Shown in pieces: positions 1 to 1,376 of a DNA stretch of 15,311 nucleotides. A program made the position numbers and the translations under genes. This DNA comes from Escherichia coli (GTDB lineage: Bacteria > Pseudomonadota > Gammaproteobacteria > Enterobacterales > Enterobacteriaceae), in assembly GCF_003334815.1 (NCBI RefSeq), contig NZ_QOWO01000056.1. One strand, 5' to 3'. Within the stretch, counting starts at the first letter, position 1. Each line of letters opens with the position of its first letter. The notes under the pieces were generated by a model that did no database searches, had not been told where the DNA came from, and saw only the letters and a list, made by a program, of their open reading frames with translations.

Positions 1-2
1 AC

Positions 3-377
3 AAACGGGAACTTCGCCAGTTCAAAGAAACGCCGGAACAGCGCTTCGCGCTGGAGCAGGAACATCTGCAGCCGTTACCGGATACGGACTTCGATACCAG
101 TTACTTCGATATCCGCCATGTGTCCTGGGACAGCTATATCGAGGTTGGTGGTAATCGTTACAGCGTTCCCGAAGCGCTGTGTGGTCAGCCGGTATCGATA
201 CGAATATCGCTGGATGACGAGTTGCGGATCTACAGTAATGAGAAACTGGTGGCCTCACATCGCCTCTGTTCGGCATCGTCTGGCTGGCAGACAGTGCCGG
301 AGCATCACGCCCCGCTCTGGCAGCAGGTCAGTCAGGTGGAACATCGACCACTGAGTGCCTATGAGGAGCTGTTGTGA
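3..377 (+). CDS. istA: IS21-family transposase IstA, C-terminal fragment (5' end lies outside the window)
   Basis: The reading frame is open from the window edge (..[56 protein letters not shown]..) to the stop at 377. The stop overlaps the ATG of the downstream IstB-like gene (ATGA-type overlap at 374-377), as in IS21 istA/istB operons. Confidence 0.85.
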
Positions 378-1174
378 TGCATGAGCTGGAAGTCCTGCTG
401 AGTCGCCTGAAAATGGAGCATCTGAGTTATCACGTTGAAAGCCTGCTGGAACAGGCAGCTAAAAAAGAGCTGAACTACCGGGAGTTCCTGTGCATGGCGC
501 TACAGCAGGAATGGAACGGCAGGCATCAGCGCGGTATGGAGTCCAGGCTGAAGCAGGCTCGTCTGCCGTGGGTCAAAACGCTGGAGCAGTTCGACTTTAC
601 CTTCCAGCCGGGCATCGACCGTAAGGTTGTCCGGGAACTGGCTGGTCTGGCGTTCGTGGAGCGCAGCGAAAACGTGATCCTGCTGGGACCTCCTGGTGTC
701 GGAAAAACGCATCTGGCCATAGCTCTTGGCGTGAAAGCGGTGGATGCGGGACATCGGGTACTGTTTATGCCACTGGACAGACTGATCGCGACACTGATGA
801 AAGCGAAACAGGAAAACCGGCTGGAGCGTCAGCTGCAGCAACTGAGTTATGCCCGGGTGTTGATCCTGGATGAAATAGGCTATCTGCCGATGAACAGAGA
901 GGAAGCCAGCCTGTTCTTCCGGCTACTGAACCGTCGATATGAAAAAGCGAGCATCATACTGACGTCAAACAAAGGGTTCGCAGACTGGGGAGAAATGTTC
1001 GGAGATCACGTGCTGGCAACAGCGATACTGGATCGGTTGCTACATCACTCAACCACGCTGAATATCAAAGGAGAGAGTTACCGGTTAAAAGAGAAACGTA
1101 AAGCTGGAGTGCTGACCAAAAACACAACGCCAATCAGTGATGATGAAATGGTGAAAAGCGGACAGCATCAGTAA
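374..1174 (+). CDS. istB: IS21-family helper ATPase IstB (266 aa)
   Basis: Walker A motif [17 protein letters not shown] and Walker B-like VLILDEIGY; the C-terminal [12 protein letters not shown] segment is typical of IstB; overlaps the upstream istA stop. Confidence 0.92.
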
Positions 1175-1376
1175 CGAAAGTATCTTAGCGGGCATGAAAA
1201 TGGCAAATAACGGTCAAACATCGTGGCGTTGACATTCTGGCTGGAAGTATCGAGTACACGCTCGTAAGCGGCCCTCACGGCCCGCTAACGCGGAGATACG
1301 CCCCGACTTCGGGTAAACCCTCGTCGGGACCACTCCGACCGCGCACAGAAGCTCTCTCATGGCTGAAAGCGGGTAT

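Follow-up and report, generated by a model that had tools for sequence, protein, structure and literature searches.

An IS21 copy in the repA4 region of an F-type microcin B17 plasmid of Escherichia coli

The window, a 15,311-nucleotide stretch of Escherichia coli contig NZ_QOWO01000056.1 (assembly GCF_003334815.1), opens inside an insertion sequence. Positions 1 to 1234 (+ strand) are the 3' part of IS21 and are identical at 1231 of 1234 positions to the full 2131-bp copies L001 and L002 (three differences, 99.8% DNA identity). The window holds the right-hand 58% of the 2131-bp element, whose first ~897 bp lie beyond the left edge. Megablast of positions 1-1600 against PLSDB returns hundreds of unrelated plasmid records with 99.7-99.9% identity, and the match ends at 1234/1235. 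All the PLSDB records that match 1-1234 are annotated with istA/istB and as 'IS21-like element IS21 family'. The initial annotation had recognized an IS21-family element with a right end at about 1236. The terminus lies at 1234, 2 bp away, where the plasmid matches stop, and the family assignment narrows to IS21 itself by the 99.8% identity and the profile score of its IstB protein.

The transposase gene istA is represented by its last 124 codons and stop codon (3-377, + strand), colinear with the annotated istA of the full copies; this fragment by itself gives no match in NCBIfam. The istB gene (377-1174, + strand) codes for a AAA+ helper ATPase of 265 amino acids, annotated as istB in relatives, whose product scores 301.9 bits against the NCBIfam profile NF038214 (IS21_help_AAA, cutoff 200). 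The stop codon of istA overlaps the start of istB, and the order istA then istB is the two-gene arrangement of the IS21 family. The right terminal region (1175-1234, + strand) carries the inverted repeat GTGGCGTTGACA with the terminal CA at 1233-1234. The full copies L001 and L002 start with TGTCAGCGCCAG and finish with GTGGCGTTGACA, and the reverse complement of the right end, TGTCAACGCCAC..., pairs with their left end. The TG...CA terminal inverted repeats of the family are found at the right end in the window, the left end of this copy lying beyond the edge.

An element of 2131 bp with an IstA of 390 amino acids and an IstB of 265 amino acids is what we take to be IS21 proper. The presence of a 99.8% match to the window IS on the Pseudomonas aeruginosa plasmid NC_008357.1 agrees with this assignment. 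Compared to IS21 as the 2131-bp element of R68/RP4-type plasmids, the window copy is alike in istA/istB, in the IstB helper and in the right end ...GTTGACA; no difference is seen within the element, of which only the 3' portion is in view. IS21-family elements generate target-site duplications of 4-8 bp and the sister copies have 4 bp, CGGA in L001 and AAAC in L008. Positions 1-1234 are the known and well-studied insertion sequence IS21 itself.

The DNA from 1235 onward belongs to a microcin B17 plasmid of the F type and is ordinary backbone. A search with 800-9000 shows that window 1235-9000 matches plasmids CP057527.1 and CP057547.1 unbroken at 99.8% identity, without the IS. Over its full remaining length the window (1235-15311) is colinear with CP057527.1 (1437-15515) at 98.2%. 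This plasmid, pRHB23-C10_3, is of the pMccB17 type. Its repA, of the IncFII family, occupies 1-858, the mcbA-G microcin B17 operon comes after the repA4 region, and the plasmid shares with the window 14 kb of colinear sequence, the same operon, the same 294-amino-acid open reading frame (ORF) and the same two repeat copies, while IS21 is absent there. The comparison with IS-free plasmids that had been proposed at the outset shows 1235 onward to be contiguous sequence that leads leftward to a Ter-like site, oriR and an IncFII-family repA. An exact copy of the 294-amino-acid protein (window 1591-2475) was looked up in an assembly collection where it is indexed in 1502 blocks; in all ten contexts returned an IncFII repA lies upstream and there is no IS. 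The end of repA is ~935 bp before the ORF in nine of the ten, a ParE toxin-antitoxin module being interposed in the tenth (L014). The usual state of this locus is without the IS, which is a recent arrival.

Window position 1235 corresponds to position 1437 of CP057527.1, 579 bp past the repA stop codon. Two Ter-like sites are found in this plasmid at 1265 (- strand) and 1403 (+ strand), forming an inverted pair 138 bp apart. The right-hand one reads GAATGTTGTAACTAAA, also given as ATGTTGTAACTA. IS21 is positioned 22 bp right of this site, and the first GC-rich hairpin follows 21 bp to the right of the element. In CP057527.1 the unoccupied site is ...GCTGTCAGTC TTCT GGCTGG or, in a longer form, ...TTATGAATGTTGTAACTAAACATCATCATCGCTGTCAGTC TTCT GGCTGGAAGT. 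In the window the junction reads ...GTGGCGTTGACA TTCT GGCTGGAAGT..., and the TTCT at 1235-1238 is predicted from the empty site to be the right copy of a 4-bp target duplication.

The sequence next to the IS end is single-copy IncFII backbone of the 'repA4' region (1235-1375, + strand), GC-rich with short hairpins and colinear with the IS-free plasmids and R100. This spacer of 141 bp between IS21 and the first repeat copy agrees with the distance of about 140 bp given previously, and its GC content (61.7% versus 39.6% for 1508-9634) with its description as GC-rich. Its hairpin-prone character stands in modest form only: folding of 1235-1510 as single-stranded DNA, when compared with dinucleotide shuffles, shows limited extra stability on the + strand (z = -1.4) and somewhat more on the - strand (z = -2.65). 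Alignment bears out that the spacer has no homologue upstream of repeat copy 2. A small patch of the spacer (1249-1253) reads ATCGA in the window, CCTCA in CP057527.1 and TCTCA in R100; four of its five positions differ, 15 bp from the IS end, in near-identical surroundings. A 97-amino-acid ORF spanning the IS junction (1214-1507, - strand) was judged spurious, with no such gene product on record.

The spacer and the adjoining repeat copy (1235-1507) are 94.9% identical to a single-copy segment of R100 (10247-10519 of the R100 sequence used, L010) located just right of its right-hand Ter-like site. The layout of repA, oriR and paired Ter-like sites is the same as in R100, and in the IS-free relatives the segment lies downstream of repA1, oriR and Ter. 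In contrast to the repA4 region of R100, the one in the window is split by IS21 and its distal 132 bp are duplicated around the mcb insertion. In plasmids NR1 and R1, leading-strand synthesis reportedly begins at a primase-dependent G-site close to the 3' end of repA4 (Jiang et al. 1993; Masai and Arai 1989; Bernander et al. 1992). A comparison of the region with phage genomes, in which a G4-type origin was sought, revealed no similarity, and Rfam gave no match anywhere in the window. In pEntH10407, repA4 is annotated 363-751 bp beyond the repA1 stop codon (PMC2762410), which places the insertion inside repA4. The repA4 region holds ter sites and matters for stable maintenance, and in a TraDIS study of pEC958 it was scored as necessary for this function (PMC4398462). 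IS21 sits in this non-coding 'repA4' stretch downstream of an IncFII-type origin.

Repeat copy 1 (1376-1507, + strand) is a 132-bp backbone segment, 93.9% identical to the single copy of R100 (10388-10519). Repeat copy 2 (9635-9745, + strand) has a 21-bp deletion and runs into IncFII backbone from a tir homologue onward. An ungapped search pairs 1376-1437 with 9635-9696 (62 nucleotides, 92%), and a gapped alignment extends the pair to the full copies with 88% identity over aligned bases. Between them lies a low-GC insertion of 8127 bp (1508-9634; 39.6% GC), delimited by the annotation of CP057527.1 and by a gap in R100 homology, that contains the 294-amino-acid ORF, an ORF of the DUF6710 type and the mcbABCDEFG operon on the - strand. 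R100 homology ends at 1507 and picks up again at 9635, where window 9635-10123 matches R100 10388-10897 at 91.4%. The two matching ranges overlap by 132 bp in R100, which is exactly the piece duplicated in the window. The repeat exists because these 132 bp of backbone flank the 8.1-kb mcb insertion left and right, and the spacer is unmatched at copy 2 because the single-copy backbone to which it belongs lies left of the duplicated piece. The pair is explained as duplicated IncFII backbone around the mcb insertion and not as mobile-element ends. Identity to the single copy of R100 is ~94% for either copy but only 88% between the two, so that this is not a fresh duplication. To judge from their alignment, the copies look like two diverged alleles joined by recombination, and such diverged bracketing sequences suggest that recombination of two replicon-downstream regions, rather than transposition, may have placed the module there.

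The 294-amino-acid ORF, in DNA of ~35% GC, is situated between the repA4 region and mcbG. NCBIfam gave no match to it, no Pfam match is on record, and in L007 the ORF adjoins IS21 without the mcb operon. Further right, a segment of 1231 bp (2877-4107) carrying the 221-amino-acid DUF6710 ORF (3013-3678, - strand) is present in CP057527.1 and cleanly missing from CP057670.1. Its edges show no obvious duplication, and it has an internal imperfect inverted repeat of 38 nucleotides (3796-3833 / 4014-4051).

The most probable explanation for this arrangement, and one held with good confidence, is that IS21 entered the backbone of an ordinary mcb plasmid by plain insertion, with TTCT as the presumed target duplication. 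IstA and IstB would have inserted the element at ...GTCAGTC|TTCT|GGCTGG..., giving rise to the 4-bp duplication. In that event repA, oriR and Ter would remain directly left of IS21, and the expected left flank would be ...CATCATCGCTGTCAGTCTTCT followed by the IS21 left end TGTCAGCGCCAG or, expressed in another form, ...GCTGTCAGTCTTCT directly before TGTCAGCGCCAG. Duplications of this length flank other IS21 insertions, namely those of L001 and L008 described above. The only likely consequence would be that 2.1 kb now separate oriR and Ter from the hairpin region, the presumed zone of leading-strand start. If the left flank is intact, this would be a natural example of a single-replicon plasmid that tolerates 2.1 kb of inserted DNA between oriR/Ter and the site where the leading strand presumably starts. 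The TraDIS-based need for repA4 in pEC958 sits awkwardly with such tolerance. Both the IS and the plasmid backbone of the locus are known, and the case is one more insertion in the variable zone beside an F-type replicon.

The junction at 1234/1235 has no colinear match in PLSDB or in complete E. coli genomes and no exact-pattern match in the collections of genome contigs and metagenome contigs. A degenerate-pattern scan revealed no IS21 end within 30 bp of ACACGCTCGTAAGCG. IS21 right ends do adjoin the same 273-bp segment (1235-1507) in five further plasmid lineages, and their orientation is the same each time. The junction of L008 is at the window equivalent of about 1235 and has the AAAC duplication. 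The junctions of L005, L002, L006 and L007, at the equivalents of 1284, 1375, 1407 and 1453, respectively, have no duplication and have unrelated left flanks. There are six junctions in six variants of the region, and the IS right end faces the region in all of them. By sequence, the IS copies form three variants (window/L001/L002/L021; L007/L008; L005/L006), and the junction flanks are 0-13% diverged from the window. The idea that the inner junctions arose by deletion from an ancestor resembling the window was discarded: L007 has a flank with 100% identity to the window but an IS with 18 differences in 1234 positions, and the remaining flanks are 6-13% diverged, against a single-ancestor origin by deletion.

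Two of these junctions, from independent insertions that are clean or apparently clean, coincide. TTCT in the window and AAAC in L008 (CP099182.1) occupy the same alignment columns, 21 nucleotides before ACACGCTCGTAAGCG, and AAAC is present once in an IS-free relative of L008 (L026). The chance that two of six junctions in 273 bp share a position is roughly 5%. In addition, L001 and L022-L024 have IS21 left ends, likewise co-oriented, at a distance of 300-600 bp on the downstream side of the region. A conserved control segment from the leading region (13000-13364) gave no records with IS21 nearby versus seven for the real region, a figure to be read as one control with biased ascertainment, in a replicon-adjacent zone that is a general IS sink. 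IS21 is described as having no strong sequence specificity and as favouring kink-prone DNA, and a structure-based, kink-seeking choice of targets by IstB was proposed (PMC11208146). The recurrent junctions hint at a target preference. That IS21 has a real, orientation-biased preference for the ~270-bp stretch from Ter to the hairpins downstream of the IncFII origin is a tentative proposal that we regard as rather doubtful; it would agree with kink-seeking targeting by IstB (PMC11208146).

The same set of junctions bears on a different view of the locus, in which IS21 marks a rearrangement junction, with DNA other than repA-oriR-Ter to its left and with the replicon severed from 1235 onward. 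Such a junction might result from an IS21-mediated adjacent deletion, from recombination of two IS21 copies or from a replicon fusion of the (IS21)2 type. Four of the six lineages with an IS21 right end here lack a duplication and have unrelated left flanks, which counts against plain insertion and indicates that IS21 often marks a rearrangement junction here. No reciprocal junction appeared among the 30 best places in PLSDB for a query joining the region to the IS21 left end, though one was expected to rank there. AP026497.1 was dismissed: its 25-bp extension is a chance similarity, and its IS lies inside a different repA and in the opposite orientation. Against the rearrangement, the right junction is exactly where a clean insertion predicts it, and two related cases, L001 and L008, are clean insertions, each with a 4-bp duplication. 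Only this one replicon is present in the closest IS-free relative, and loss of repA-oriR would require a second one. The single Rep gene of this relative means that the plasmid type must keep repA-oriR, most simply left of the IS. Simple insertion appears the more likely of the two because the IS-free relative has one replicon only; a rearrangement at 1235 is the less probable reading.

A third account, put forward in the initial annotation, is that the mcb module may have lost its original left junction when the IS interrupted a longer element bounded by the repeats, of which 1240-1376 would be a remnant. Its sole support is that this sequence has no counterpart upstream of copy 2, a feature that the duplicated backbone explains. 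Both R100 and the IS-free mcb plasmids have 1235-1507 as an unbroken stretch of single-copy backbone. The mcb module still has its complete left junction (1507/1508), identical to that of the IS-free relatives, and no DNA right of the IS is missing, contrary to the suggested removal. A longer pre-existing sequence was indeed entered by the IS, but it was plasmid backbone and not a repeat-bounded module. There is also no second IS21 terminus in the window above chance (up to 5 mismatches over 17 nucleotides), and the IS does therefore not bracket cargo. With these observations the account becomes highly improbable. An IS-bounded composite transposon carrying the mcb module was likewise rejected, there being no IS end on the far side, where the bounds are the diverged backbone repeats.

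Two further features lie in the backbone beyond repeat copy 2. The tir-like ORF (9836-10131) appears truncated to ~98 amino acids, homology to R100 tir and its upstream sequence ending at ~10123, and an acetyltransferase gene follows. Just upstream of parM (11385-12347, - strand), the segment 12357-12519 contains T/G-rich direct repeats of 11-12 bp that look like the parC-type centromere iterons of a ParMR/Stb partition system.
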